From NCBI GenBank assembly GCA_040767085.1, contig JAXGPF010000005.1:8343-72342 (forward strand): DNA of 64,000 nt, given 5' to 3'. The DNA is from Kiritimatiellia bacterium (GTDB lineage Bacteria > Verrucomicrobiota > Kiritimatiellia > JAAZAB01). Each line of letters begins with the position of its first letter. Within the stretch, counting starts at the first letter, position 1. A program made the position numbers and the translations under genes. Shown here piece by piece: positions 4,871-46,236 of this stretch. The notes beneath the pieces were generated by a model that saw only the letters and a program-made list of their open reading frames with translations, had not been told where the DNA came from and made no database searches.

Positions 4871-6785
4871 CGGATGTAGCTGTAACCCGCGAAAGCATGG
4901 CCTGCCCGTCCAGGCGTAGCGCGCCATCCATGGGATAATCCACCGCGAACCAGATGCTGTATGCCCCGGGCGGCAGCGCCATGTCCTGCACGAGGATGAT
5001 CGGCGCCAAATTTCGCAAAGCCCCCTGGAATGCCGGACGGCAGTTGGCCGGGTTGCCGTCAAACGGCGTCCAGGCCAGCCGATCGTTGCAATAAAACCAG
5101 AGCCCGGCATCATGCGCATACGCCGCCACCCACCAGTCCACCTGTATGCCGGCATAGGGTTCGACATGCAGCATGCTCACGGCCAGCGTCAAGGGATCGC
5201 CGGCGCCCAGGCAAACACCATCCCCGGCCAAGCCATTAACCGTGACCAGCGGCCCGACCGGCGCCAGCGTATCCAGGCGCAAGGCGCAGGCGGTGGCGGC
5301 AGGAGCAACGACGGACAGGAAGTAAGTGCCGGTCGCCGGGCATACCCAGTCCAGTTGGTTCATACTCCAATTGGGCGCGCCGGAATTGGCCGCCGGCGCC
5401 AGGCCCAACGACACATCGGCCGCGGCGCAATCGGCGGTGACGCGGTAATAGACGCCGGCACGAGCGGCCAGGGCGAACCGTTGCACGGCGTCGGGAGCCA
5501 GGTTGACGTTGGTCGCGGCGCCCGGCGAAAGCACCGGCATTCTCGGATATCCCAGCGCCTCGGTTGCGCTGATCGCCGCCGCCAGCAAAGCCTGACCGCA
5601 TTGGGTAAATGAATCCGGCCCGGACTCATCCCAAAACGGCAGGCAAACCGTCACCGACACCTCCGTATCGGGATTGTAGGCCATCAGCGAAAGATATCCC
5701 AGGGTAGCGCCGGTATGGCCGAATCCTATGTCCAGCATGTACGCGCAGCCGCAGCCGTAATTGGCGTTGTGGGGCGCCGTGTTGGTTTGCATGAAACGGA
5801 CCATCTGCGCATCGAGGATGTTTTCGCCCCGCATCATGGTGCGGATGTAGCGGTTGAGCGCGGCCAGGGTGCCGTAGCCATTGCCCTCGGCGACATTCGC
5901 GCTGATGTTGGCGTTGGAAGTGATCAGCGTCGCCCCGCCGGGCCGATATTGGACTCCCGGCACGAACGGCGCCGGCAAGGCCGTGTCCGCGGCCAGGCAT
6001 GGAAAGCGTATGGCGGCCAAAGGCACAGTGGCATTCCCGCCAACTACTTGCTCGTGCAGATAATCGGAATAAGTTTTGGGCGCGCCGCAATAAAGCGAAT
6101 AAACCCGGGCGATGATTTCACCAAGGATGGTGTAACCGGTATCGCTGTAATGATAATTCCGGTCCGGGGCGAAAAACTCCAGGCGGTGCAGGGCAACCTG
6201 CCCGACCAGCTCGGCGGCGGTAAACTGGTGTTCCGGCTCCAGGTCCAGGCGGTATGTGACGTAGGGATCGCCGCCGCAGCCTGGGACGGGATCGTTATCC
6301 ACATCATAGACGCCGGCGCTGTGCCGGAGCAGTTGCGCGATGGTGATCTCGTTCTTGTGCGGGATGTTCCAGTTGGTGTCGGCGGGGAGGTAAGGGATGC
6401 TGCTGCCAGGAATACTGTTCGTGATTTTGGCATGGATGTCCAGCAGGCCCTGGCGCTGCAGGCGCAGGATGGCCGCGGCGGTGAAATTCTTGGTATTGCT
6501 GGCAAACCGGAAAGTGGTGTCGGGAGTCAGAGCCTGATCCGGGGCAGCCGCCGAGGAGGCGAAAAAAGTCTCATTGGAAGTTTCCAGGAATACGCTCAGC
6601 GACGGCACGGGAACGCCCAAGGCAGTTTCCAGGCCCAGGCGCACGGCATGCACCGCGTTGCTGACTTTTTCCGCCGGCGCGGGCGTGGCCGCGCGCGCGC
6701 CGCCGCAGACGCACCCAACCGCCGCCAGCGCCGCCACATAATGCGAGGCACGACAAAAGCAGATTCCCCTGGCAATCCAATGCAT
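4845..6785 (-). CDS. serine hydrolase, beta-lactamase family, secreted, with C-terminal extension
   Basis: ORF track; signal peptide; SxxK motif in FRFASNTKNF; last 7 codons and stop lie inside the right inverted repeat of the Y1 unit. Confidence 0.75.
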   Translation of the reverse strand: MHWIARGICFCRASHYVAALAAVGCVCGGARAATPAPAEKVSNAVHAVRLGLETALGVPVPSLSVFLETSNETFFASSAAAPDQALTPDTTFRFASNTKNFTAAAILRLQRQGLLDIHAKITNSIPGSSIPYLPADTNWNIPHKNEITIAQLLRHSAGVYDVDNDPVPGCGGDPYVTYRLDLEPEHQFTAAELVGQVALHRLEFFAPDRNYHYSDTGYTILGEIIARVYSLYCGAPKTYSDYLHEQVVGGNATVPLAAIRFPCLAADTALPAPFVPGVQYRPGGATLITSNANISANVAEGNGYGTLAALNRYIRTMMRGENILDAQMVRFMQTNTAPHNANYGCGCAYMLDIGFGHTGATLGYLSLMAYNPDTEVSVTVCLPFWDESGPDSFTQCGQALLAAAISATEALGYPRMPVLSPGAATNVNLAPDAVQRFALAARAGVYYRVTADCAAADVSLGLAPAANSGAPNWSMNQLDWVCPATGTYFLSVVAPAATACALRLDTLAPVGPLVTVNGLAGDGVCLGAGDPLTLAVSMLHVEPYAGIQVDWWVAAYAHDAGLWFYCNDRLAWTPFDGNPANCRPAFQGALRNLAPIILVQDMALPPGAYSIWFAVDYPMDGALRLDGQAMLSRVTATSGVTPKFKR

Positions 6786-6944
6786 TTGATTGACTCCTTG
6801 ATTTTGTATCGGTTTTCAGCGGGGATGCTGACACATCCGCCGGGGCGTGTCAAATAAAACCGCCGCAATTCGGGATTGACAGCCGGCAAATTTTGGCAAA
6901 CAATGCGTCTGTTTTGTCACGGGAAATCCGCAGTCGTTGATGCC

Positions 6945-8102
6945 ATGAAAATTATTTGCGCCACCAGCATGCCGTTCGCGCGCGAGGCTTTCGGCCGGCT
7001 GGGCCACGTAGAAATCCTGCCGCCCCGCGAAATCACGTCCGCGCGCGTGCGCGACGCAGATATCCTGGCCGCGCGCTCCACCCTGCGCGTGAACCGCGCA
7101 CTGCTGGAGGGCAGCCGCGTGCGGTTCGTGGGAACCGCCACGATCGGCACCGACCACCTGGACATCCCCTGGCTGGAGCAGGCTGGTATCCGCTGGTGTT
7201 CCGCCGCCGGGTGCAACGCCAACAGCGTGGCGGAATATGTGGCGGCGGCGCTTTTGCGCCTGGCCGCCCGCCATGATTTCACCCTGGCCGGCAAAACCAT
7301 GGCCGTGATCGGCGTGGGCAATGTCGGCCGCCTGGTTGTCCGCAAAATGAGCGCCCTGGGGCTCCGCGTCCTGCAGAACGACCCGCCCCGGCGCGACGCC
7401 GAAAACGACCCGGTCTTCCAGCCGCTGGACGCCGTTCTGCGCGAGGCGGATGTCGCCACCCTGCACGTGCCGCTGACCGGCGACGGCCCTTATCCCACCC
7501 GCCGCATGGCAAATGCCGCGTTTTTCAAGATGCTCAAACCGGGTGCGATTTTCATCAATGCCGCCCGCGGCGGCGTGCAGAATTCGGACGCGCTCCTGGC
7601 CGCCATGGACCGCGGCCGGGTGGCGCATGCCATCCTGGACACCTGGGAAGGCGAGCCGGCATTCCGTCCCGACGTTCTGCATCGCGCCGCTTTCGGCACC
7701 CCGCACATTGCCGGGTACTCCTACGAGGGCAAGATCATGGGGACGGTGATGGTTTACCGCGAACTCTGCCGTTTCCTGAACGTCGAGCCGGACTGGGATT
7801 ATGAAGCGCTGCTGCCGCCGCCCGCGGTGCCGGAAATCTCCCTGGAGCCGCCGCCGCGCGGCACTCCGTCCGAGCGGCTGCTGGACCAGGCAGTGCGGCG
7901 GTTATACGATATCGAGCAGGACGATGCCAACCTGCGCCGGATTGCCGGCCTGGACGACCAGGCGCGCGGGCGCGCATTTGAGGAGTTGCGCCAGAAATAT
8001 CCCATGCGCCGGGAATTCCGGTACACGCGCATCGCCGGCCCCGGTTTGCCGGCCGATTTGCTGCGGCAATTGTCCGCGCTGGGATTCCGCTGCCACGGCT
8101 GA
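6945..8102 (+). CDS. pdxB: erythronate-4-phosphate dehydrogenase
   Basis: ORF track trimmed to ATG 6945 (MKIICATSMPFAREAFGRLG); NAD fold IGVGNVG; PdxB-type C-terminal domain. Confidence 0.9.
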   Translation: MKIICATSMPFAREAFGRLGHVEILPPREITSARVRDADILAARSTLRVNRALLEGSRVRFVGTATIGTDHLDIPWLEQAGIRWCSAAGCNANSVAEYVAAALLRLAARHDFTLAGKTMAVIGVGNVGRLVVRKMSALGLRVLQNDPPRRDAENDPVFQPLDAVLREADVATLHVPLTGDGPYPTRRMANAAFFKMLKPGAIFINAARGGVQNSDALLAAMDRGRVAHAILDTWEGEPAFRPDVLHRAAFGTPHIAGYSYEGKIMGTVMVYRELCRFLNVEPDWDYEALLPPPAVPEISLEPPPRGTPSERLLDQAVRRLYDIEQDDANLRRIAGLDDQARGRAFEELRQKYPMRREFRYTRIAGPGLPADLLRQLSALGFRCHG

Positions 8103-30761: not shown

Positions 30762-32189
30762 TCACCGCAGTTTGAACAATGCGCCCCGCGGAATAGTTTC
30801 ATAGGCGCCCATATCCACAATACCGGAAAATCGGTCCCGGCGCACAAATCCCGCAAGATCCACGGCGCCGGTCATCCAATCCATGTTGGTACCGGCGTTG
30901 ACGCCCGGCGACTGCGCATCCAGCCGGAAAGATTCATCGCTGAATAACGGCGGACTGGTTATATTGCCTTCGCCAGAACCCATCTCAGACGCGGGATATG
31001 AACAGGAATACACCACACCGCCGGTCAGTGCGGCTCCGCTCAAGTTAAGATTAGACTGCAACCCCGCCGCATTATTGTAAATGACGCAATTGACGGCGTG
31101 GACGCCGCTGACCTCCGCCGTGGTCACGCCGATATACAATCCCCCCCCGCTGGTGGTTGCCGCGTTTGACACAATCGTGCAATTGGCCAGTGAATTGCCG
31201 TTGTCGCGGTTTTGCGCCGCACAGTAGATTCCGCCGCCATAGGGCGCCGAGTTATAAGCGAACACATTATTGCGCAACACGATGCGGCAGGCATCGCCGC
31301 GAATGTATAATCCGCCGCCGTAGTAATAACCGGCGCGGGTCACCAGATTGCTTATGATCCGGCAATTTTCAATCACTGCCTCCCCGGACGCGGCGGCGCC
31401 ATAATAACAGTACATCCCCCCTCCCTGATTGGTTGCCGCGTTACAGGCGATAGTAGAATTAGCCACCACCCCCTCCATTTTCAAATGGATGCCGCCGCCA
31501 TACAAGCCGGCATTAGCAAAGATCACGCAATTGGAGATGAAACCGTTTTGCTCCACAAACACGCCGCCGCCATAATTGGGACACCGATTGGAAATGATGG
31601 AGCATTCGATTAACGCGCCGCTTTCCCGGATCAGCACTCCGCCGCCGCCATAGGAAGTATCCCGTTCGGACAAATTATTAAAAATGCTGCACCTTTCCAC
31701 CCGGGCCAACGGCCCGTTCAGGCAGACGCCCCCGCCATGCAGCCCGACATTTTCTTTTACCCGGCAATCGCGAAGCATTCCGGCAGAAATATAAACGCCG
31801 CCGCCATAAACTGCAGAATTGGCCGAGCCATTGCTGATGGTAAAACCGGTGACTACGGCATTGGAATGGCTGATGTTCAGACAGCGCACCGAAGCCTTGC
31901 CGTCTATCGATGTCTGCTCGGTGCCAGCGGCGCCGACCAGCCTAACGCCTTTGCTGACCGCCAATTCAGCTTCCAGAAAATATACGCCGTTGGATACCAG
32001 AATCATATCATCTGTCAGGGACTGATCCAGGGCATTGCTGATCGTACGCAAGGCCGTCGGCCAGTTCGTGCCGTCCGCCCCATCCTGTCCCAAAGTCGAA
32101 ACATACCATGTAGTTGCACCGCGGCCGGGCAGCGGCATCCCCAACCCTATAATCCATGCTAATGTCAGACAGCGCTGTAGTGCTTGCAT
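30762..32189 (-). CDS. secreted right-handed parallel beta-helix repeat protein
   Basis: ORF track; signal peptide; repeated YGGG motifs; C-terminal DMGAYE. Confidence 0.6.
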   Translation of the reverse strand: MQALQRCLTLAWIIGLGMPLPGRGATTWYVSTLGQDGADGTNWPTALRTISNALDQSLTDDMILVSNGVYFLEAELAVSKGVRLVGAAGTEQTSIDGKASVRCLNISHSNAVVTGFTISNGSANSAVYGGGVYISAGMLRDCRVKENVGLHGGGVCLNGPLARVERCSIFNNLSERDTSYGGGGVLIRESGALIECSIISNRCPNYGGGVFVEQNGFISNCVIFANAGLYGGGIHLKMEGVVANSTIACNAATNQGGGMYCYYGAAASGEAVIENCRIISNLVTRAGYYYGGGLYIRGDACRIVLRNNVFAYNSAPYGGGIYCAAQNRDNGNSLANCTIVSNAATTSGGGLYIGVTTAEVSGVHAVNCVIYNNAAGLQSNLNLSGAALTGGVVYSCSYPASEMGSGEGNITSPPLFSDESFRLDAQSPGVNAGTNMDWMTGAVDLAGFVRRDRFSGIVDMGAYETIPRGALFKLR

Positions 32190-32434
32190 CTCTATCCTTT
32201 CTCGTTGGCTACAACCTAAACCGCCAATGGCATGCCAGAAACAGTTTGCTATTTAAGTTAATTTCAAAGTCCGCTGGTCTATAATGCCTCAAGCTGACAC
32301 TAACTGACTTTTATACAAGTTAATCGCCACCTGATTTAAGAATTATAACAAACGAAAACCAGGGACGGCAAATATTTCCCATGTTGTGAGCAAACAAATC
32401 GTCCAGTTTGAGACTCTTGCACGTGGCTCGCATT

Positions 32435-34090
32435 TCAATTAAACATTACAGCTTGGGAAAAAAGCATATCCACTATTGGAATCGGCGCAGGCTCGCGCTT
32501 GTCGGAATCGACCGTTCCGCTGTAACCGCCCCCGCGAAAATCGTGCAGGCGGCTGATCTCCAGCACGTTCATGGATGCCATGGTCTCCGCCGTGAGCGGT
32601 TGGCCCTGGCAATGTGTTGCGGGATAAGCAAAGGCTTCGATTCTCACATATTTTTCCAGGATGCGGCCGGCGGGATCGCGGGAGAGTGTGTAAGCCGCCT
32701 GCGGCTGGTTTTCAATGAGGGCCACACCTTGGTCGGTGATGAAACGCACCTGCACGCGCGGCCTTTTGGTCTGATCCGCACCCGCCACTGCGACGGTTAC
32801 CGCGGTGGGATTCCCGGTTTTATCCTTTTCCAGGGCGATACGGGCGAATCGGAAACTACTGTAATCGTATGGCGGGGTTTTACGTCCCTGGCCATCGGTC
32901 GCCAGCGCGCCCAGCAGACCGTAAAAAGTTCCATTGCGGTAAGCGCGCGCGGCGTTATGCTCCCTGGCCTCCCGGGAAAGCTCCCCGGACTCCGGCACCA
33001 GCAGTATGTTGCGGCCCCGGGCGTAAACAAAATGATCGCGCACAAAAAAACCAAAACATCTTTGCCCGGTTGACAGCACTTCATCCCAGTGGTTGTAAAA
33101 AGCCAAGGTGCCCTTGCGGCCGAAAGCCAGGTGCTGGTTCCAAACCTCTATGCCCAGGACGCGCGGATCGAATGCCAGCTTTTCGAGCGTGGCTTCCAGC
33201 GGGCCGCCCGTGTGGTTGAGGGTGATACCGCCCCCGTCCCTGAAGCGGAGACCTTCTATCGGATGGCCCTGGCCATCTTGCATTGTGCCGTCAAGCGCCG
33301 CCTTATACGCATCGCGCCATGGCCGATGCACGCCCTGCCGCAGGACAAAGCGCAAGTCGGTAATTTCCTCCGGATTAAAATCGAACCGGACTTGCATCCG
33401 GCCGGATTCCGCCCGGAGATAGATTCTTCGCGTATTGACGGGGATGCTCCTTTTTTGCAGGTCGCTGTCCGGAGTGAGTTCGTAAGTTGCCGGGTCAACC
33501 TCGCGCGCGCCGGCTACCGCCAAGGTCATAGCCGCATCGGCTTTCCCGCTGATAAACATGTCCAGGCGGTAAATGCTCAGCCATGGCTTTTTATCGTCAT
33601 AGGGGTTCAGATTTTCGAACGCGTATGCCACGGGGGAAGTCCGGTTATTGCGGTATGACGTTTTTGCGCTTTCGCCATGCCCGGTGGCGTAATAGCTGTC
33701 CAGCGTATTGAAATGGCCGGGACCGTGAGCGCTATGATGCTCGGCGTTGGGCGCCCAGAGGGCGTCCGGGTGCTGCGCCCGGAACTTCTCGGGCAAGGGT
33801 TGCGGTTTGGAAGGATAGTAGTTGGAAAAAGGGAAATGGCGAAATCCCATTTCCCAGAATAGTTCGGGATTGACATCATAATCCGGCACGCGCCCGCCAT
33901 GCTGATGGGAAAAGGAATGCAGATGTTCGACGCTGCTCCAGTCAACGTTTTCGTATGGGTTCATAATTCTGTTCGGGGCGGCGGATGCATGTTCCTGTCC
34001 CGCGGTTGGCCGGGTGAAGACAAGCCCGGAGTAAACAAACAGCGTCACCAATATGGCGCTATTTCTGCGAACCTGCCTTGGACGCATCAT
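32435..34090 (-). CDS. secreted hypothetical protein (possible glycan-active or metal-dependent hydrolase)
   Basis: ORF track 32435..34096 (GTG) trimmed to ATG 34090; signal peptide; His-rich HLHSFSHQHGG; no confident family. Confidence 0.45.
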   Translation of the reverse strand: MMRPRQVRRNSAILVTLFVYSGLVFTRPTAGQEHASAAPNRIMNPYENVDWSSVEHLHSFSHQHGGRVPDYDVNPELFWEMGFRHFPFSNYYPSKPQPLPEKFRAQHPDALWAPNAEHHSAHGPGHFNTLDSYYATGHGESAKTSYRNNRTSPVAYAFENLNPYDDKKPWLSIYRLDMFISGKADAAMTLAVAGAREVDPATYELTPDSDLQKRSIPVNTRRIYLRAESGRMQVRFDFNPEEITDLRFVLRQGVHRPWRDAYKAALDGTMQDGQGHPIEGLRFRDGGGITLNHTGGPLEATLEKLAFDPRVLGIEVWNQHLAFGRKGTLAFYNHWDEVLSTGQRCFGFFVRDHFVYARGRNILLVPESGELSREAREHNAARAYRNGTFYGLLGALATDGQGRKTPPYDYSSFRFARIALEKDKTGNPTAVTVAVAGADQTKRPRVQVRFITDQGVALIENQPQAAYTLSRDPAGRILEKYVRIEAFAYPATHCQGQPLTAETMASMNVLEISRLHDFRGGGYSGTVDSDKREPAPIPIVDMLFSQAVMFN

Positions 34091-34240
34091 AATCACTGTA
34101 ATCCATCTCCCATGGAAATATTATGCCGGCAATATACGAGTTGTTTACAAAAGCCTGGCGCAATATGGATTTTTAGTTTTACGTTGAAAATCCAATCGTG
34201 TCAAATTTAAGGCTCCTAACCAGAATTTGTGGGTAAAAAA

Positions 34241-35936
34241 CAGGTTTTAAAGTTTAAGAAGTTCTCCAAGCAATGGCGCCAAAAGATGGTGGAGTTATTA
34301 ACAGCCTGCCGCTTTGGGCGTTTGGCGGCCCCGCAGCAGCCTGATTAATAACTCCTGATTGGCGCGATGGCGGAACGGAGATAAAGCGGCGGCAAAAAAA
34401 TAGGCTGGCCTTTCCGTAATCCATTGCGTATGCAATGGGTGAACACAAAAAAAGGAGGACCAGCCCAAGGTGAAACTTAAAACAATTTTGAATCGTTTGC
34501 AACCTTTGAAACGTTTTATTTATCAGGAAACTTGTATGGTTTTGGATCGTCGCGGCCAATGGAAAGTGGATATAAGCATTCGTCCGCATCGCCAACGCGC
34601 GGCATGCTGCTCGCGTTGCGGGCGACCGCTGGCGACATACGACACTCTGCCTGAACGGATATGGGCGTTTGTGCCCATTTTGAATGTGCCGGCTTTTTTG
34701 CATTATAGTCCGCGCCGGGTAAATTGCCCCGAACATGGCGTGGTGGTGGAAGCGCTGCCTTGGAGCGATGGCAAACGACCCTACAGCAAGGCGCTGATGC
34801 TTTTTTTGGGGAACTGGGCGCGGAGGTTGTCCTGGAAAGAGACGGCGCTGATTTTCAAAGTCAGTTGGCAGGCGGTTTATCGGTCGGTCGAGTGGATGGT
34901 GGAATGGGGCTTGGCGCACCGGGAATTGGCCAATATAACGGCGATTGGTGTTGATGAACTCCACGTAGGCAACGGTAAAAAGAGCAAGAACTATCTGACC
35001 TTGATCTATCAGATTGATGCGCAATGCCGCCGATTGCTCTGGGTCGGCCAAACCCGCCGGGCGGCCGCGCTGCGTAAAGGGTTGCAATCTTTGGGAAAAC
35101 CCGTGCTGGCCGGCATTCGACATATATGTAGCGATATGTGGCGACCTTATCTGAAAGTCATTGCTGCGAGCCTCAGCCACGGTTGCCACATGATTGACCG
35201 CTTCCATGTCGTGCAAACCTTGAATGCCGCCGTGGACGAGGTCCGGCGCCGGGATATGGCGGCGATGACAGCGCGTCCGGCGGCCAAGCAAAAACTCAAG
35301 AAAATGCGCTGGACCTTGCTGCGCCGCAAAACCCGCGTGCGCGGCAAAGCTCGCGAAATGCTTGATCGGATATTGGGCACAAGACTGCAAACCGGCCGCG
35401 CCTATTTGTTCAAGGAAAGCTTTCAGCATTTTTGGAGCTATCACAGCCCAACCTGGGCGCGTAATTATCTCCAGGCATGGGTCAAGCGCGCCTGTCGTAG
35501 CCGCATTGCGCCAATCATTAAGGCGGCTAAAACCATTGCTAAACACGAGGAGCTGCTTTTGAACTGGATCAGAGCCAGAAACGAGGTTTTTACTGGCGCA
35601 ACCGAGGGCTTGAACAATAAAGCTCGAGTGGTTACCAAACGATCTTATGGCTTCAGAACTTTTCATGGCGCGGAAATGGCGCTATATCATACCCTTGGGC
35701 AATTGCCCGAACCGGTAATCACCCACAAATTCTGGTGAGGAAACAAATTTAATAACTCTACGAATTTTGCTGAATTTTCACGTTTTTACTGTATTTGGAC
35801 GGACGCGCCTGTTTACGGCCTTTACGCGCTATACGTTAATCTGCCTGGAGTGACAACAAGCGAAAACGGGATAAAACCAATGTTTGCCCAAATTTCAGCA
35901 AAACAAAGCATCCATTTTTAGACTTTTGAAACCAGA
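34241..35936 (+). mobile_element. ISL3-family insertion sequence (boundaries approximate)
   Basis: ISL3 transposase flanked by imperfect inverted repeats (about 34241..34263 vs 35913..35936, roughly 17 of 22 matched); GC visibly lower than surroundings. Confidence 0.5.
34470..35738 (+). CDS. ISL3 family transposase
   Basis: ORF track; GTG start after AGGAGG; N-terminal zinc-finger cysteines; C-terminal TGATEGLNNKARVVTKRSYGFR and terminal HKFW. Confidence 0.85.
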   Translation: MKLKTILNRLQPLKRFIYQETCMVLDRRGQWKVDISIRPHRQRAACCSRCGRPLATYDTLPERIWAFVPILNVPAFLHYSPRRVNCPEHGVVVEALPWSDGKRPYSKALMLFLGNWARRLSWKETALIFKVSWQAVYRSVEWMVEWGLAHRELANITAIGVDELHVGNGKKSKNYLTLIYQIDAQCRRLLWVGQTRRAAALRKGLQSLGKPVLAGIRHICSDMWRPYLKVIAASLSHGCHMIDRFHVVQTLNAAVDEVRRRDMAAMTARPAAKQKLKKMRWTLLRRKTRVRGKAREMLDRILGTRLQTGRAYLFKESFQHFWSYHSPTWARNYLQAWVKRACRSRIAPIIKAAKTIAKHEELLLNWIRARNEVFTGATEGLNNKARVVTKRSYGFRTFHGAEMALYHTLGQLPEPVITHKFW

Positions 35937-35943
35937 TTAATGA

Positions 35944-37197
35944 TTATCTTGTTATTAATCTGATCGCAATATTTTCACAACCGGCCGGCGGCGCATAATT
36001 TTCCAACCGGCTGATCGTTCGCCCGTTCGATTCCGCTATGATGTCATAATGGAAAAAGGTCGTCACGGGCACGCCATCCGCATCCGCCGCGATTATGCTG
36101 TGGGTTAAAATAATAGCGCGGGCATCGCCGGCGCCCGGCGTGCATCCATCCGTTCCGGTGATGGCGTAATTATTGGCGACCAGGTCTTCCCCCGTCTCGC
36201 GGGGTACGGCGCGCACGCGCGCCCGTGCGACAGGGTCACCGGCATCATTTTCCACACGGACTGCCACTTGCCGACGGAAAACGGCCCGGCTGCTTTGGCC
36301 AGGTTGCGCCGCGTAAACATCCGGCTGTGCGCCGGGAGCAACCTGGCAATCCGTCAATTCAATCCGGCCGCCGCTGGTCAATTGCCAATTGCGCGCATTG
36401 CGTTCGAATCGGCAGCCATGCAAAAGGATGGTATTGCCCTGGATACCGGCAATAACCGTGGTGTTTTCCCGGAAACAGCAGCCTTCCGCCGCTTGATCCG
36501 GCGCGCTGAAAACAGATGCATTATTTTCGAAAATCGAATCGCGGATTGACGCGCGCTGCCGGGCGGCGCCAAATAAAGCGGCAGCGTTGAATCCGGCAAC
36601 CAACGCGCGGTCCAGGGTGACCAGCCCTGACCAATAAGGGCGGGCTATTTCCCGCCGCCCGCTCGCCGATGCAAGCACACCATGATAAATATGCAACTCG
36701 CCGCCATAGCCGTTTTGCCACCCCCCACGTCCATCGGGCAACTTGCCGGAAACAATCGTGTGGTCTTTCCCGCCGATCTTAAGCGCCGCCCGGATGGCGG
36801 AGTTTGTGCGGTTGCCCAAGGTCAAGCGGTTGACGCACGCGGGAGCGTATCGGTCGTTCACGCCGACCACCAGATAAGGCGCAAGAATCAAAGTTCCGTT
36901 CAGGATCAAAGTTTCGTTGGCCAACAGTGGACATCCGATTTGCATCCACGTTTCAGAACCGTCATTCCGGCCAACCTGCAGGTTGGCGTCAACGGTATAT
37001 GTTTGCGCGCCGGCATCCTTCCGTACCAGGTTCCAACCATTGGCGCGGTCAGCGCGCAACAGTGACTCCAGTCGCGCCGGCGCTGACTCGGCAAAGTCAG
37101 CCACAATCATCGTGCGCGTACCGGACTCAAAAACGACTGTCGCCGGCAAGGGGAGGCTGATCAACAGGCATGCCAGACAGGCAATAATTTTACCCAT
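35944..37197 (-). CDS. secreted beta-helix-like hypothetical protein
   Basis: ORF track 35944..37236 trimmed to ATG 37197 (AGGTGG SD upstream; signal peptide MGKIIACLACLLISLPLP); stop lies within about 10 bp of ISL3 right end. Confidence 0.5.
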   Translation of the reverse strand: MGKIIACLACLLISLPLPATVVFESGTRTMIVADFAESAPARLESLLRADRANGWNLVRKDAGAQTYTVDANLQVGRNDGSETWMQIGCPLLANETLILNGTLILAPYLVVGVNDRYAPACVNRLTLGNRTNSAIRAALKIGGKDHTIVSGKLPDGRGGWQNGYGGELHIYHGVLASASGRREIARPYWSGLVTLDRALVAGFNAAALFGAARQRASIRDSIFENNASVFSAPDQAAEGCCFRENTTVIAGIQGNTILLHGCRFERNARNWQLTSGGRIELTDCQVAPGAQPDVYAAQPGQSSRAVFRRQVAVRVENDAGDPVARARVRAVPRETGEDLVANNYAITGTDGCTPGAGDARAIILTHSIIAADADGVPVTTFFHYDIIAESNGRTISRLENYAPPAGCENIAIRLITR

Positions 37198-37223
37198 ATT
37201 ACCACCTGAATCCGTTATGAGGT

Positions 37224-37357
37224 CGGGATGCCGCATCCCGCTGGAAGTGCGACAAGAATACGCGGCGCGAAGGATGAAGCTGGATCAACATATCCCGCGA
37301 TAGCGGGACAAGCTGCAAGTTTATCCCGCGAGCGGGATTTATCCCGCACAGCGGGAT
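37224..37357. repeat. array of four short GC-rich hairpin palindromes sharing half-site ATCCCGC/GCGGGAT
   Basis: CGGGATG-CCG-CATCCCG (37224..37240); ATCCCGC-GATA-GCGGGA (37292..37308); ATCCCGC-GA-GCGGGAT (37323..37338); ATCCCGC-ACA-GCGGGAT (37341..37357); extra half-site at 37497..37503. Confidence 0.5.
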
Positions 37358-37530
37358 TCTTCGCAATAGAGCAGATGCGGCATAATGGCCTCACCCGCAG
37401 GGCGGTCTTTCCCGTCAAACCGAGCCGTGCTTTTTTGGTGATATTGTAAAACGCCATAAATTGTTGTTTATTCAGGCATTATCTTAACAATATAAAATCC
37501 CGCCACGGATTCAGGTTGCATTGCCGCGGG

Positions 37531-40500
37531 TTATGGCTCGAATTCCGTCGCCGCAGCGCCGCGTTCTATCTGCAACCCATCCACCCAGACAGTGCTGCTG
37601 GCATCGGACACAAAATGCACTCCCAGCATGCTGGCGCCCGACCCGGCTTCGAAAGCCACACTGCAGCGTTGCCATTGGCGTTGCAGTTGGAAAGAAGTGT
37701 CGCCTTTTCCGCCGGCGCGCAGCTTGGCGGTCACGCCCTCTCGATCCGCGCGCAGCCAGGCGGAAAATACATATTTTTCCGGCGTCATATGGCTGGTATG
37801 CAAATTGATATAAATAAACCGCCAGCTACCGCCATCCGCAATCATTTCCAGACATTTAGCGCCATGGTACGGAGCATTGGTGGTCAACCCCCACACTTGA
37901 TTGGAACCGCCAATGCGTTCCCAGGGCTTCAGCGGCGTTCCTGTCTGGCGCCAGTAATCGGGACGGCCGGGAATGGATTCCTCTTCCAAACTCGGATTCG
38001 GCGCCAGGTTTTTCATATCAACCCGCCCCGCCCGCCCGTAAGTCGGCGTCCGCGGCGGCGGCATGCCCCGCGGCTGCATGGCGACCCCGATGGCAAGCGC
38101 CCCGTCTAGCACGGAATCATGGCCGGCTTTTTGTATATGATAGGCGCGCACTCCCAGCGGTTCCAGTTGATCATCAAAGGCGCCGGCGGTAACGGGATAA
38201 GCAGCCGCCAGGAAAAGTTCTTGAATGGCTTCGGCGCGCTCAAACAGGGGGGAATCGTATCGCACCGCAACCGGGTAATCGGCGACATTGGCGGCCAGCA
38301 AGATAAAGCCCCCGTCCGGGTCGCGCTTCAGCGCAACATGTACATCCGGCATGCGCCGGGCGTCAAAATCATACGGCCCGCCGGAATAATTCACGGTTTG
38401 GGGCAGATCCGGTTCCAGGCATGCGGGACTTAACCGCCGCAGGCGCCGTGCCAATTCGCGCAGCGTATCCCAGTTAGCCTGAGCGCGCTCCGGGTAGCAG
38501 AAATATCCGATGCCTTTGACGCCGTGGATCAAAGCCAGGTAGGTTTGGCACACCTGCTCGGCGGGCAGCAAGGCGCGCTTGACGATCCCGCTGTATTCGG
38601 CGCCCTGCATGACGACCAGGGGCACCACGCGCATCCGCCGCGCTTTCAGCCGCAAGTGATGCGCCATCCAAGCGACATAATCAATAGTGCCGTTGACGCC
38701 TGCATGTTCCGGCGTCCAGTATGGATCAATCCCCAACATATCCGCCCAATCAAACCAGTCATCCGAACATTGGTACACGCCCGGATTACAATTGAGAAAA
38801 ACCGGATGGTAGCCGTCCAGTTTTTTTATCCGGCGATAGAATTCCCGGCCGACGGGAATCTGGCCGTAATTGATATTCAACAACGGCTCGTCGAAAATGA
38901 AACAAGCGGCCAGCGCCGGATGCCGCATTCCCGCCTGCAATACCGCCGCAAGATAAGGCATCTGATTGTCAAGATACTCCAGCAATACTGCGGTTTTAAC
39001 TTGCGCAGCGCGTCCGGGAATGGCGGAGAGAATGACATCTTTGCTGCGGATGCCCAACGAGCAGGTGGCATGTTGCAAGGCGCGGTTGACCGCATGCAGT
39101 TCCTCCGGATTCAGTAGTTGATCCCGGTTTTTGACCTTGGTGCGGGCGTTGAACGGCGTATAATTCATATCCACAGCCGCAATGACTTTCAGACCATGCC
39201 GCGCCGCGGCATCCAGGTATGCCTGCATATCTTTAACTTGATCGCCCTCAGGATCGCTGCGGTCGCCCGCCGGCTGATATGACCATTGGTACATGGTGTT
39301 AAAACCGGCGTCCGCTATTTCGGCGAAAGCATAATCATCCGCCGGCGTAATGCCGGCCATGATCATCCCGCACGGAAAAAACGGCTTGCCGTTGTCAAGC
39401 AGCCGTTGATTGGCCCGATCCACTTTCCACTCGCAACCCGGGCGCGGAGCGCGCTTAATCAGCGGCAGTGCCAGCACCGACCCGGCGCCGCCATCCGCCA
39501 GCACGAGTTCCAAGTGCAATTGGTGTTCCCCCGCCGGCACCCGATCGAGCGGCACGGCAAAATCCAACCGGGGGGGTGGCGCGTCCAGACTAGCCAGCAC
39601 CTGCGCTCCCAGCCGCGCCTGGAGATGGAGATCGCGCAAGGTTTCCGCCGGCATTCCGATACGGCAAGCGGCATACGCCGCCGATTCCGTCGTGTAATAA
39701 TCGCGGTCTAACTCTGCCGCGAACAGGTTCAGTACGCCAGCATCTGCGATAGCCAGCTTTTGCCAGGTCTCGCGTGTCGTACCGTCCACCAAACACACCG
39801 TGACGGCGCGTTCCGTCATGGCCGCGACCGGAACCGGCACACGCGCCGACAGCATGACAGCGCTGCCATCCGCGAAAACAACCTTTTCAGCCAGAGTGCT
39901 TTCGCCATGGCGGGGTTCGTCCTTCACGGCAATGAGCACGGTCCCGGTGGCAGAACTGAACAACTGCAAGTCGGCCTGAATGTCATAAAAAGCCGTCCCA
40001 TTGGTGACATAATACTGACTGACTTCCGCCGATTTAATATAGGGCAGCAAAGGCGCAACCAGGCTATTTATTTCCAAATCGAGCAGGCGCCCGAAACGCG
40101 CCGCCTCCGTCCAGGCGTTGGCGGGTGAACTGCCTGAAAGCGCCGCCCAACTGAGGCATTCGCGCTCTGCACCAATTTTCACCCGGCAAGCGTCGCGGTA
40201 AACGCGGAAACAATCAATGATAAAATTCATCCGAGCTTGCTCGGGGTGACCTACCTCGGTCAGAAGCGCAAGCGGCAGCGCAATTTCAACTTGCCAGCCC
40301 CGGGGATCGGTTGTCACCGCCGATTTCCATGGAATATTCCATTCCTCGCGTTCGCGGCCCTTATCCGTAGTCACCCGGAAATCGGCCCGGGTGTTGGCTT
40401 TATTGACTAGAAACTGATAAAACATTTGGCCGCCCGTGCCGGGATCGAAGGAAACCTGCACATTATCTTCGCGTTGCACAGGCTGGTCGTGTGATAAATA

Positions 40501-40791
40501 AAGCGGCGGATCGCGCTGATCTTCCGGTTGGTCAACCGTGAAAGCCGCGTAAAGCCAGCGGCTGTCACGCAAAACGCGCACATAATGCCTGCGGACGGCG
40601 CCGGAGTCTCCTCCAACCTGACGAAATTCATCCACCAGCGCGGCTGCCGACCAGCAAGCATCCGTTATAATCCCGTCAATGAGCGGCGCTTCCATGGCGC
40701 ATGGAACCCGGATTTCGGGGATACCGCCGGCGCCGGCGCGCATGGCCAGAGCAAACAGACCGATTTTCACATATTGGCTCAAATCACGCAT
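37531..40791 (-). CDS. large secreted multidomain protein, CBM9-like N-terminal domain, putative glycoside hydrolase
   Basis: ORF track; 1086 aa; signal peptide; N-terminal APLIDGIITDACW pattern; domain calls tentative. Confidence 0.5.
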   Translation of the reverse strand: MRDLSQYVKIGLFALAMRAGAGGIPEIRVPCAMEAPLIDGIITDACWSAAALVDEFRQVGGDSGAVRRHYVRVLRDSRWLYAAFTVDQPEDQRDPPLYLSHDQPVQREDNVQVSFDPGTGGQMFYQFLVNKANTRADFRVTTDKGREREEWNIPWKSAVTTDPRGWQVEIALPLALLTEVGHPEQARMNFIIDCFRVYRDACRVKIGAERECLSWAALSGSSPANAWTEAARFGRLLDLEINSLVAPLLPYIKSAEVSQYYVTNGTAFYDIQADLQLFSSATGTVLIAVKDEPRHGESTLAEKVVFADGSAVMLSARVPVPVAAMTERAVTVCLVDGTTRETWQKLAIADAGVLNLFAAELDRDYYTTESAAYAACRIGMPAETLRDLHLQARLGAQVLASLDAPPPRLDFAVPLDRVPAGEHQLHLELVLADGGAGSVLALPLIKRAPRPGCEWKVDRANQRLLDNGKPFFPCGMIMAGITPADDYAFAEIADAGFNTMYQWSYQPAGDRSDPEGDQVKDMQAYLDAAARHGLKVIAAVDMNYTPFNARTKVKNRDQLLNPEELHAVNRALQHATCSLGIRSKDVILSAIPGRAAQVKTAVLLEYLDNQMPYLAAVLQAGMRHPALAACFIFDEPLLNINYGQIPVGREFYRRIKKLDGYHPVFLNCNPGVYQCSDDWFDWADMLGIDPYWTPEHAGVNGTIDYVAWMAHHLRLKARRMRVVPLVVMQGAEYSGIVKRALLPAEQVCQTYLALIHGVKGIGYFCYPERAQANWDTLRELARRLRRLSPACLEPDLPQTVNYSGGPYDFDARRMPDVHVALKRDPDGGFILLAANVADYPVAVRYDSPLFERAEAIQELFLAAAYPVTAGAFDDQLEPLGVRAYHIQKAGHDSVLDGALAIGVAMQPRGMPPPRTPTYGRAGRVDMKNLAPNPSLEEESIPGRPDYWRQTGTPLKPWERIGGSNQVWGLTTNAPYHGAKCLEMIADGGSWRFIYINLHTSHMTPEKYVFSAWLRADREGVTAKLRAGGKGDTSFQLQRQWQRCSVAFEAGSGASMLGVHFVSDASSTVWVDGLQIERGAAATEFEP

Positions 40792-46161: not shown

Positions 46162-46236
46162 TGGCACGCCCAAGGAGAGTCGAACTCCTCTTCCCAGGAT
46201 GAAAACCTGGTGTCCTGACCGATAGACGATGGGCGC
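46162..46236 (-). tRNA. tRNA-Glu (anticodon UUC)
   Basis: Manual cloverleaf on minus strand: acceptor GCGCCCA/TGGGCGT, anticodon stem CCAGG/CCTGG, loop TTTTCAT, T-arm AGGAG-TTCGACT-CTCCT, 3' GCCA; 75 nt. Confidence 0.85.

Follow-up and report, generated by a model that had tools for sequence, protein, structure and literature searches.

The Correia elements (NEMIS) of Neisseria and the ERIC/IRU elements of enterobacteria are sequences of 100–300 bp that resemble miniature inverted-repeat transposable elements (MITEs); they are delimited by terminal inverted repeats and reach hundreds of copies per genome. They are found inserted between genes and at operon junctions, their transcripts form long stem-loops, and they can act as sources of promoters or processing sites. 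The BOX elements of Streptococcus pneumoniae have constant ends with tandem boxB units between them; these units vary in number and give stem-loop potential. Repetitive extragenic palindromic sequences and bacterial interspersed mosaic elements (REP/BIME) are present in tens to hundreds of copies per genome, are associated with RAYT tyrosine transposases and can stabilise mRNA 3' ends; like the Correia elements, they uncouple the expression of adjacent operon genes. For insertion sequences (ISs) belonging to the IS1380 family, the general rule given by ISfinder is a target duplication of 4–5 bp and inverted repeats starting with CC. Here we analyse an array of short hairpins in a 64,000-nucleotide stretch of DNA from a Kiritimatiellia bacterium (contig JAXGPF010000005.1, positions 8,343 to 72,342; hereafter the window), where the array is located in a spacer that separates two co-directional genes predicted to encode proteins of 1086 and 417 amino acids (aa). 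We conclude that the array is very probably the internal tandem-repeat module of a 311-bp non-autonomous MITE (37205-37515) that carries IS1380-type ends and has inserted in this spacer.

An insertion bounded by inverted repeats

Three palindromes in the window sequence have the common arms ATCCCGC/GCGGGA(T/C) and are located between the 1086-aa and 417-aa genes:

37292-37309, unstranded: hairpin unit 1, ATCCCGC-GATA-GCGGGAC, with loop GATA and C as its final base
37323-37338, unstranded: hairpin ATCCCGC-GA-GCGGGAT, with loop GA
37341-37357, unstranded: hairpin ATCCCGC-ACA-GCGGGAT, with loop ACA

In the 64 kb, three distinct sites (5 matches over both strands) fit the pattern ATCCCGC-N0-8-GCGGGA, all of them within 37292-37357; shuffled sequences would lead one to expect 0.16 matches. 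The bare 7-mer ATCCCGC yields 33 matches against 24 expected and shows no enrichment apart from the hairpin cluster, and the relaxed core CCCGC-N0-10-GCGGG is at background (9 found, 11.8 expected). The hairpin feature is real and non-random; the first-pass annotation of this DNA spotted it correctly but misassigned it.

The orthologous spacer in the closest relative is empty. The 417-aa protein has only 10 homologues among 5.8 billion proteins, and the closest of these (85% identity) is encoded at loci L002-L004, where the C-terminal end of the 1086-aa orthologue is found directly upstream (L002:48-752). The two orthologous genes are separated there by 27 nt (TAA-CCCGCGGCAGTCAAAGCTTGGAGCGAT-ATG), as compared with 333 nt in the window, and both flanks align well. 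At the more distant orthologous loci L005-L007 the gene order is different, and the motif is absent from all of L002-L007.

Further copies were recovered from two collections. A scan of a genome collection with a pattern comprising a hairpin and a further half-site gave at least 120 matches, of which, among those listed, a single one was homologous to the window sequence, the remainder being unrelated tandem hairpin repeats or single chance sites. This homologous match (L189; JAXGSX010000491.1, a 1588-bp contig of a Kiritimatiellia metagenome-assembled genome, MAG) is a copy of the whole element that is bounded exactly by CCTGAATCCGT and ACGGATTCAGG, is located between divergent genes and has flanks unrelated to those in the window. 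A metagenome scan probed with a 20-mer from the most conserved internal block gave 6 matches, of which four were chance matches inside coding regions and two were copies in JGI metagenomes (L251:723-955 and L250:115-348; 233-234 nt) that have identical ends and lack the hairpin array. Each of these three copies is flanked by a perfect 5-bp target duplication: AAGGA in L189, GATTA in L251 and TTTAT in L250. The boundaries in the window are as follows:

37205..37515, plus strand (left-to-right orientation of the ends; the host genes are on the opposite strand): probable complete non-autonomous MITE, 311 bp, delimited by the empty orthologous spacer in L002-L004 and by homology with L189, L251 and L250 that is bounded exactly here
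37205..37215, plus strand: left terminal inverted repeat, CCTGAATCCGT
37505..37515, plus strand: right terminal inverted repeat, ACGGATTCAGG; this repeat and the subterminal CCCG(C/T)C correspond to the right end of IS1380-family ISs
37200..37204, unstranded: left flanking pentamer TACCA, a degenerate target-site duplication matching the right pentamer at 3/5 positions
37516..37520, unstranded: right flanking pentamer TTGCA, the partner of this degenerate duplication

As detected, the inverted repeat is perfect over 12 nt (ACCTGAATCCGT at 37204-37215 and ACGGATTCAGGT at 37505-37516), 11 of which are common to 4/4 copies.

These comparisons bear on two readings that tie the sequence to its present locus. 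The first-pass annotation had offered, as one possibility, an array of regulator-binding sites in the leader or promoter of a beta-helix gene, and a locus-specific operator array of this kind was rejected: the closest relative lacks the whole region from its 27-nt spacer, the motif is absent from the distant orthologous loci, the half-sites are spaced by 2, 3 or 4 nt, and an array with another number of units occurs at a non-orthologous locus of another genome. The other reading makes the region an ancestral leader with a regulatory role for the beta-helix gene, lost by deletion from the lineage of L002-L004; it draws on there being only one empty-site lineage and on the non-identical flanking pentamers in the window. 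We consider it extremely improbable, as the same sequence with the same end points is found in three unrelated contexts, flanked in every one by a perfect 5-bp duplication, and its ends match those of a transposase-encoding IS.

The copies also clarify which palindromes belong to the array. Of the four that had been credited with one common half-site, the three listed above do share it, whereas the fourth, CGGGATGC-C-GCATCCCG at 37224-37240, has its arms in the reverse order and is private to the window copy, since CAGTATGCC(G/A)CA stands at this site in the remaining three copies. The half-site had also been said to recur at 37497-37503; the 7-mer ATCCCGC is indeed present, but it is a subterminal part of the right inverted repeat outside the array, and as the other copies read ATCCCGT or ACCCCGT there, its identity to the half-site is coincidental. 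The placement of the palindromes relative to the genes was accurate, with the upstream stop codon at 37531-37533 and the downstream ATG at 37197 (minus strand), and the AGGTGG Shine-Dalgarno sequence noted ahead of the 417-aa gene is present.

The element has open reading frames (ORFs) of 73-80 aa only, with low-complexity translations, and the translation of its plus-strand 73-aa ORF has no homologue among the 5.8 billion proteins. A tblastn search of the window with the transposases P0011, P0034 and P0062 gave nothing below E = 0.08, and so revealed no IS1380-type transposase. Given the lack of a transposase in the window and of homologues of its ORFs, the element is taken to be a non-autonomous derivative and not an IS. 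It has no match in the PLSDB plasmid collection; among viral contigs, three scans gave no match to element-specific patterns, and a single-hairpin pattern gave only chance matches among those listed. The identity of a known structured RNA was rejected as no Rfam covariance model matched the element, with no match up to E = 1 in 37100-37620. The sole Rfam match at gathering threshold in the window is a tRNA gene (46165-46236, minus strand, 53.4 bits).

Termini in common with IS1380-family insertion sequences

The terminal 17 nt of the L189, L251 and L250 copies (CCCGTCACGGATTCAGG) perfectly match IS ends from related metagenomic bacteria (L006:7173-7189 and L005:8514-8530), and the window copy differs from them at 1 base. 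In both L006 and L005 this end (...GCCCGTCACGGATTCAGG) is found directly downstream of a frameshifted transposase gene of the PF13701 (DDE_Tnp_1_4) family, for which the L006 gene gave E = 1.4e-18, and homologues of this transposase are annotated as IS1380 family transposases. The same 17-nt terminus is the right inverted repeat of a third IS, in L254. By comparison with this intact relative, which is 91% identical, we placed the left end of the L006 IS, as the MITE inverted repeat used as query had missed the left end in L005 and L006. The L006 IS so delimited spans 5467-7189 (1723 bp) with the left end CCAGAAAGTGTGA, its ends read CCAG.../...CAGG, and ATGAA is present on both flanks. Two further sets of relatives gave comparable ends: the P0034 transposase (70% identical) is encoded by a 1676-bp IS with the ends CCTGAAAGCGTGATGAAGG...ACCTGTCACGGAATCAGG that occurs in at least 10 different contexts, and the IS ends of intact 441-aa transposase relatives, found in many different contexts, are CCTGAAAGCGTGA...TCACGGAATCAGG. 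ISEcp1, a member of the IS1380 family, generates 5-bp duplications and has the left inverted repeat CCTAGATTCTACGT (PMC2887853, PMC6061673). An IS1380-type transposase would move the element in trans and generate a 5-bp target duplication.

The right end of these IS1380-type ISs (L006:7150-7189; L005:8491-8530; L254:1641-1680; L256:4512-4551) contains a subterminal hairpin, the 3' arm of which extends into the terminal repeat. This hairpin covaries between relatives, reading GTGACGGGC-AGA-GCCCGTCAC, GTGATGGGC-AAA-GCCCATCAC and GTGACAGG-ATAA-CCTGTCAC, and the MITE copies retain only its 3' arm.

L005:6850-8530 and L006:5467-7189 represent one IS insertion, with a common left flank, different right flanks and a frameshifted transposase in both. 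On the right, L006 keeps the ATGAA and enters a toxin-antitoxin pair, and L005 directly enters the orthologue of a 475-aa gene of the window, which suggests an IS-adjacent deletion or rearrangement in L005. The contigs L256-L265, which carry the intact P0034-type IS, are crowded with transposase genes of other kinds (ISL3, IS1595, IS66, DDE_5 and a second IS1380 type). In these multi-copy contigs, the pentamers that flank the IS on the left and right do not match, probably because the contigs are chimeric or the IS copies nested.

Variation and constraint in the array

In an alignment of the four copies, the array is an insertion/deletion block with 0 units in L251 and L250, 1+2 units in the window and 1+3 in L189. 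Its parts, and those of the fold that encloses it, are given below:

37320..37358, unstranded: two tandem units of 18 and 19 nt, TTTATCCCGC-N2-3-GCGGGA, which enclose the hairpins 37323-37338 and 37341-37357; L189 has three such units
37267..37275, plus strand: 5' arm GCGAAGGAT of a conserved 9-bp stem enclosing the array
37356..37364, plus strand: 3' arm ATTCTTCGC of this 9-bp stem, with one G-T pair in the window copy
37218..37237, plus strand: 5' arm of an outer long-range stem, GAGGTC...ATGCCGCA, overlapping the window-specific palindrome 37224-37240
37374..37393, plus strand: 3' arm of the outer long-range stem, TGCGGCAT...GGCCTC; alignment columns 15-31 pair with 213-229
37387..37410, plus strand: most conserved internal block, GGCCTCACCCGCAGGGCGGTCTTT; 37389-37410 are identical in 4/4 copies, and 37388 is A in L250

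The tandem units are arranged head to tail with a fixed TT(T)A linker. Unit 1 is an older, more diverged unit; its counterpart in L189 has identical stems and the loop TGTT, and its predicted fold as DNA has a free energy of -7.5 kcal/mol (z -4.5). Loop lengths are 4, 2 and 3 nt in the window and 4, 3, 3 and 3 nt in L189. The array occupies the loop of the 9-bp stem GCGAAGGAT/ATCCTTCGC, which in L250 reads GGCAAGGGT/ACCCTTGCC, a compensatory change of three pairs, on both sides, and this stem is nested in turn within the second long-range stem, GAGGYC..ATGCCGCA / TGCGGCAT..GRCCTC. The predicted fold scores better than those of shuffled sequences, at z -4.6 for the plus strand of the intergenic region and at z -5.4 to -5.8 for the array plus the stem that encloses it.

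Between the window and L189 copies, none of the 42 unit-stem positions differ (0/42), as compared with 4/9 loop positions and 52/258 positions (20%) in the rest of the element (Fisher p = 2.7e-4). That the stems are invariant while sequence elsewhere drifts argues that they are under constraint. No unit contains a compensatory change, which leaves structure and sequence unseparated as the target of this constraint. Since drift has affected the loops and the remainder of the element but not the stems, we infer that the units serve the element itself, where they may stabilise the fold-back or act as repeated binding sites for the transposase or a host protein. They lie at the apex of a conserved fold-back in the left two-thirds of the element, and their number may have changed most simply by slippage or duplication.

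A protein might instead be the primary reader of these units. In this explanation, a sequence-specific protein (the transposase or a regulator of the host) binds the units as repeated sites, and the MITE is a mobile cassette that carries operator-like sites, and perhaps also a promoter, to any gene beside which it lands. Stem sequence does not vary over seven units in two copies that differ by 20% elsewhere, the lack of compensatory changes within units points to a constraint on sequence and not on pairing alone, and the motif CGGGATTT(T)AT recurs beside the right inverted repeat in the window and L251; a candidate promoter is also found upstream on the strand of the gene, and outward-directed promoters are known in IS1380-family elements (PMC9330008). 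We nevertheless regard this explanation as distinctly unlikely. Half-site spacings of 2, 3 and 4 nt are unusual for a protein that binds DNA as a dimer, the array is missing from two of the copies, the subterminal CGGGAT is CGGGGT in L189 and L250, the element has no associated regulator gene, the orthologous loci lack the motif, and the array-bearing sample comprises two copies only. A bolder version, with which the stem invariance (0/42) is compatible, would make the units a selected, expandable array that a protein reads sequence-specifically, as hairpin or duplex, and the MITE a mobile regulatory cassette of sites, promoter and terminal Shine-Dalgarno sequence. We hold this to be quite improbable; if true, the cassette would rewire the gene before which it lands, in this case one for a rare secreted protein of a beta-helix cluster in a Kiritimatiellia-like bacterium. 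KdgR- and LacI-type operators were considered and rejected.

Tandem ATCCCGC-loop-GCGGGAT arrays with unit periods of 18 to ~47 nt were observed, among the matches listed, in unrelated MAGs from Anaerolineae, Dysgonamonadaceae, Marinilabiliaceae, Bacteroidota, Pseudomonadota and another member of the Kiritimatiellae. Matches to the scan pattern were far above a rough chance estimate of ~24 for the whole collection. These tandem arrays are located at:

L228:195-248
L242:6630-6810
L183:2310-2385
L133:7170-7225
L160:540-592
L172:2985-3145
L241:3583-3628

In L189:700-790 (minus strand) there are two further small palindromes of other sequences and positions, CCACGCG-TAG-CGCGTGG and ATCCCAAT-CTG-ATTGGGA, and the MITE subfamily of L189 seems prone to gaining short perfect hairpins. 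The differing sequences of these palindromes, together with the tandem arrays in several unrelated phyla (L228, L242, L183, L133/L160), would fit a reading in which the palindromes are independent REP-like mini-elements, spread by a RAYT-type tyrosine transposase or by template switching, that accumulated secondarily in the MITE. We judge this very unlikely, because no ATCCCGC hairpin occurs elsewhere in the window, the head-to-tail order of the units and their constant TT(T)A linker are what tandem duplication would give, and the arrays in other phyla have no common flanks and were picked by the search pattern. For this last reason, and as they have no flanking homology to the element, those arrays provide no evidence of common descent. 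REP/BIME sequences proper were rejected on similar grounds: there are no dispersed copies of the palindrome in the 64 kb, with ATCCCGC-N0-8-GCGGGA only at 37292-37357. Of the functions first suggested for the palindromes, REP-like elements came closest in spirit, in that the hairpins do belong to mobile repetitive DNA, but as an internal tandem module of a MITE and not as free-standing REPs. The units resemble type I-E CRISPR repeats, and a CRISPR array or remnant was rejected given their period of 18-19 nt, the presence of only a TT linker between hairpins and the lack of unique ~25-50-nt spacers.

Several observations weigh against the assignment of the array to an IS1380-type MITE whose units serve the element. 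The target duplication in the window is imperfect (TACCA versus TTGCA, 3/5), and the known copies are few, numbering four from four different sources and contexts, one per source; a local BLAST search of the 64-kb window for further copies, degenerate ones included, was negative. No clear homology links the interior of the element to that of the IS, and the left end of the element is more similar to the right end of the IS than to the known left ends. No IS with perfectly matching ends on both sides (CCTGAATCCGTGA at each) was found among the sampled ISs, and the left-end mismatch implies that the exact parent is not one of them. With regard to the array, invariant stems without compensatory change would fit a sequence-specific protein site and a function that possibly involves the host, and its distribution fits both gain in the window/L189 lineage and loss from the short copies.

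The host operon and related elements

The element and the genes that it separates are arranged as follows:

35944..37197, minus strand: downstream host gene, 417 aa, with a signal-peptide-like N-terminus; a rare family in beta-helix gene clusters, no Pfam match
37531..40791, minus strand: upstream host gene, 1086 aa, with its stop codon 15 nt from the right end of the element
37443..37470, minus strand: candidate sigma-70-like promoter, TAAACA-16 nt-TACAAT, predicted from 9/12 consensus matches and pointing to the 417-aa gene

These two genes belong to a run of five consecutive genes (475, 553, 470, 417 and 1086 aa) at 30762-40791 on the minus strand that have no Pfam match at E = 1e-3. The GC content of this run is 0.50-0.60, compared with 0.62-0.65 in its flanks, and in the homologous clusters of L005-L007 the matches are limited to faint ones of Beta_helix, NosD or Pel9A-like type.

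The insertion sites of the copies are AT-rich pentamers at gene junctions, and as this is where such pentamers sit in these GC-rich genomes, the element comes to lie in what appears to be the leader of the beta-helix gene. In the window it would have inserted in a spacer of ~20-27 nt between two co-directional genes, and its outward end ...CAGG together with the duplicated pentamer would recreate a Shine-Dalgarno sequence and leave the downstream gene translatable. Read outward on the minus strand, the left repeat (...TTCAGG) supplies AGG and the flank supplies TGG, giving AGGTGG. At the original L251 junction, GAA-TAA-TC-ATG, duplication of TAATC preserves both the upstream stop and the downstream start, and the outward end ...TTCAGG replaces the former Shine-Dalgarno sequence CAGGAA. 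The L250 copy lies on the overlapping stop codons of two convergent genes (TTATGA/TCATAA before insertion). One of the genes there, a vapC-like PIN-domain gene (L250:344-757, minus strand), now stops at a TGA inside the terminal repeat and is longer by 1 residue.

The candidate promoter is possibly active. Promoter-like sites in the region are no more numerous than in shuffled sequences, and a motif like TAAACA-16 nt-TACAAT is seen by eye in L251 and L189 and not in L250, indicating partial conservation. We do not think that the hairpin units regulate the 417-aa gene in particular; their incidental contribution to the host mRNA would be a block of stable stem-loops between the cistrons that may influence expression.

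Such an effect is the core of a further explanation, namely that the hairpins act mainly as RNA in the host operon, by blocking 3'-5' exonucleases, providing RNase processing sites or causing partial termination, and so uncouple expression of the 1086-aa and 417-aa genes. This is compatible with the identity of the element as a MITE, which lies between co-directional genes once 20-27 nt apart; the predicted minus-strand RNA is strongly structured (-99 kcal/mol, z -2.9), and single units form stable predicted hairpins. We consider it unlikely, since the G-T pairs (37273/37358, and those of the GAGGTC/GGCCTC stem) are tolerated on the plus strand only and become A-C mismatches on the minus strand, which is that of the host mRNA. 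Furthermore, the element occurs in both orientations relative to the gene start, with its right end facing the gene in L189 and its left end in the window and L251, and two copies lack the array. Termination hairpins, which had been among the functions first proposed, do not fit the sequence: a U-tract follows none of the hairpins, which are followed by TTTAT or TCTTC, and as no terminator-like site was called in 37198-37530 on either strand, a Rho-independent terminator was rejected. A riboswitch or attenuator leader was also considered and rejected. An effect at the RNA level and a role in protein binding are both possible, and we rate each well below a plain selfish element.

The main value of the MITE assignment is for annotation, in that an apparent dedicated promoter or operator is most probably a transposon scar and is unfit for inferring the regulation of this polysaccharide-related cluster. 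It also documents a family of IS1380-related MITEs in Kiritimatiellia-like bacteria, and illustrates how an element can fit into a tight operon junction without destroying it, with the 5-bp duplication keeping the stop and start codons and the terminal CAGG replacing the Shine-Dalgarno sequence. The combination of variable unit number and invariant stems offers a small, testable case of constraint inside a selfish element.

Of the described systems, IS-derived MITEs, and IS1380-family elements such as ISEcp1 and ISPme1, are the most similar. The element is likewise short and non-coding, has inverted repeats that start with CC and match the end of a PF13701 IS, shows presence/absence polymorphism, and sits beside gene starts; its 5-bp target duplication is that of ISEcp1 (PMC2887853, PMC6061673). 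It differs in that no autonomous partner matching at both ends is found among the ISs sampled, its interior is not recognisably IS-derived, and its host is Kiritimatiellia-like and not proteobacterial. The internal hairpin module of variable number also sets it apart from the sampled IS copies, which have no such module. With the Correia and ERIC elements it shares a MITE-like organisation with terminal inverted repeats, a position at an operon junction and a long fold-back, but no sequence relationship, and Correia elements duplicate TA whereas this element duplicates 5 bp. Its modular design, with constant ends and variable tandem internal units, is that of BOX elements; however, BOX units are ~45 nt long and are not perfect mini-hairpins, and BOX has neither an identified partner transposase nor a relationship to IS1380. 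As in REP/BIME sequences, short GC-rich palindromes of alternating orientation are clustered between genes, although in the 64 kb the present hairpins are confined to a single DDE-type MITE. The MITE class is already known, and the element is an ordinary kind of feature that adds an IS1380-related member to it.

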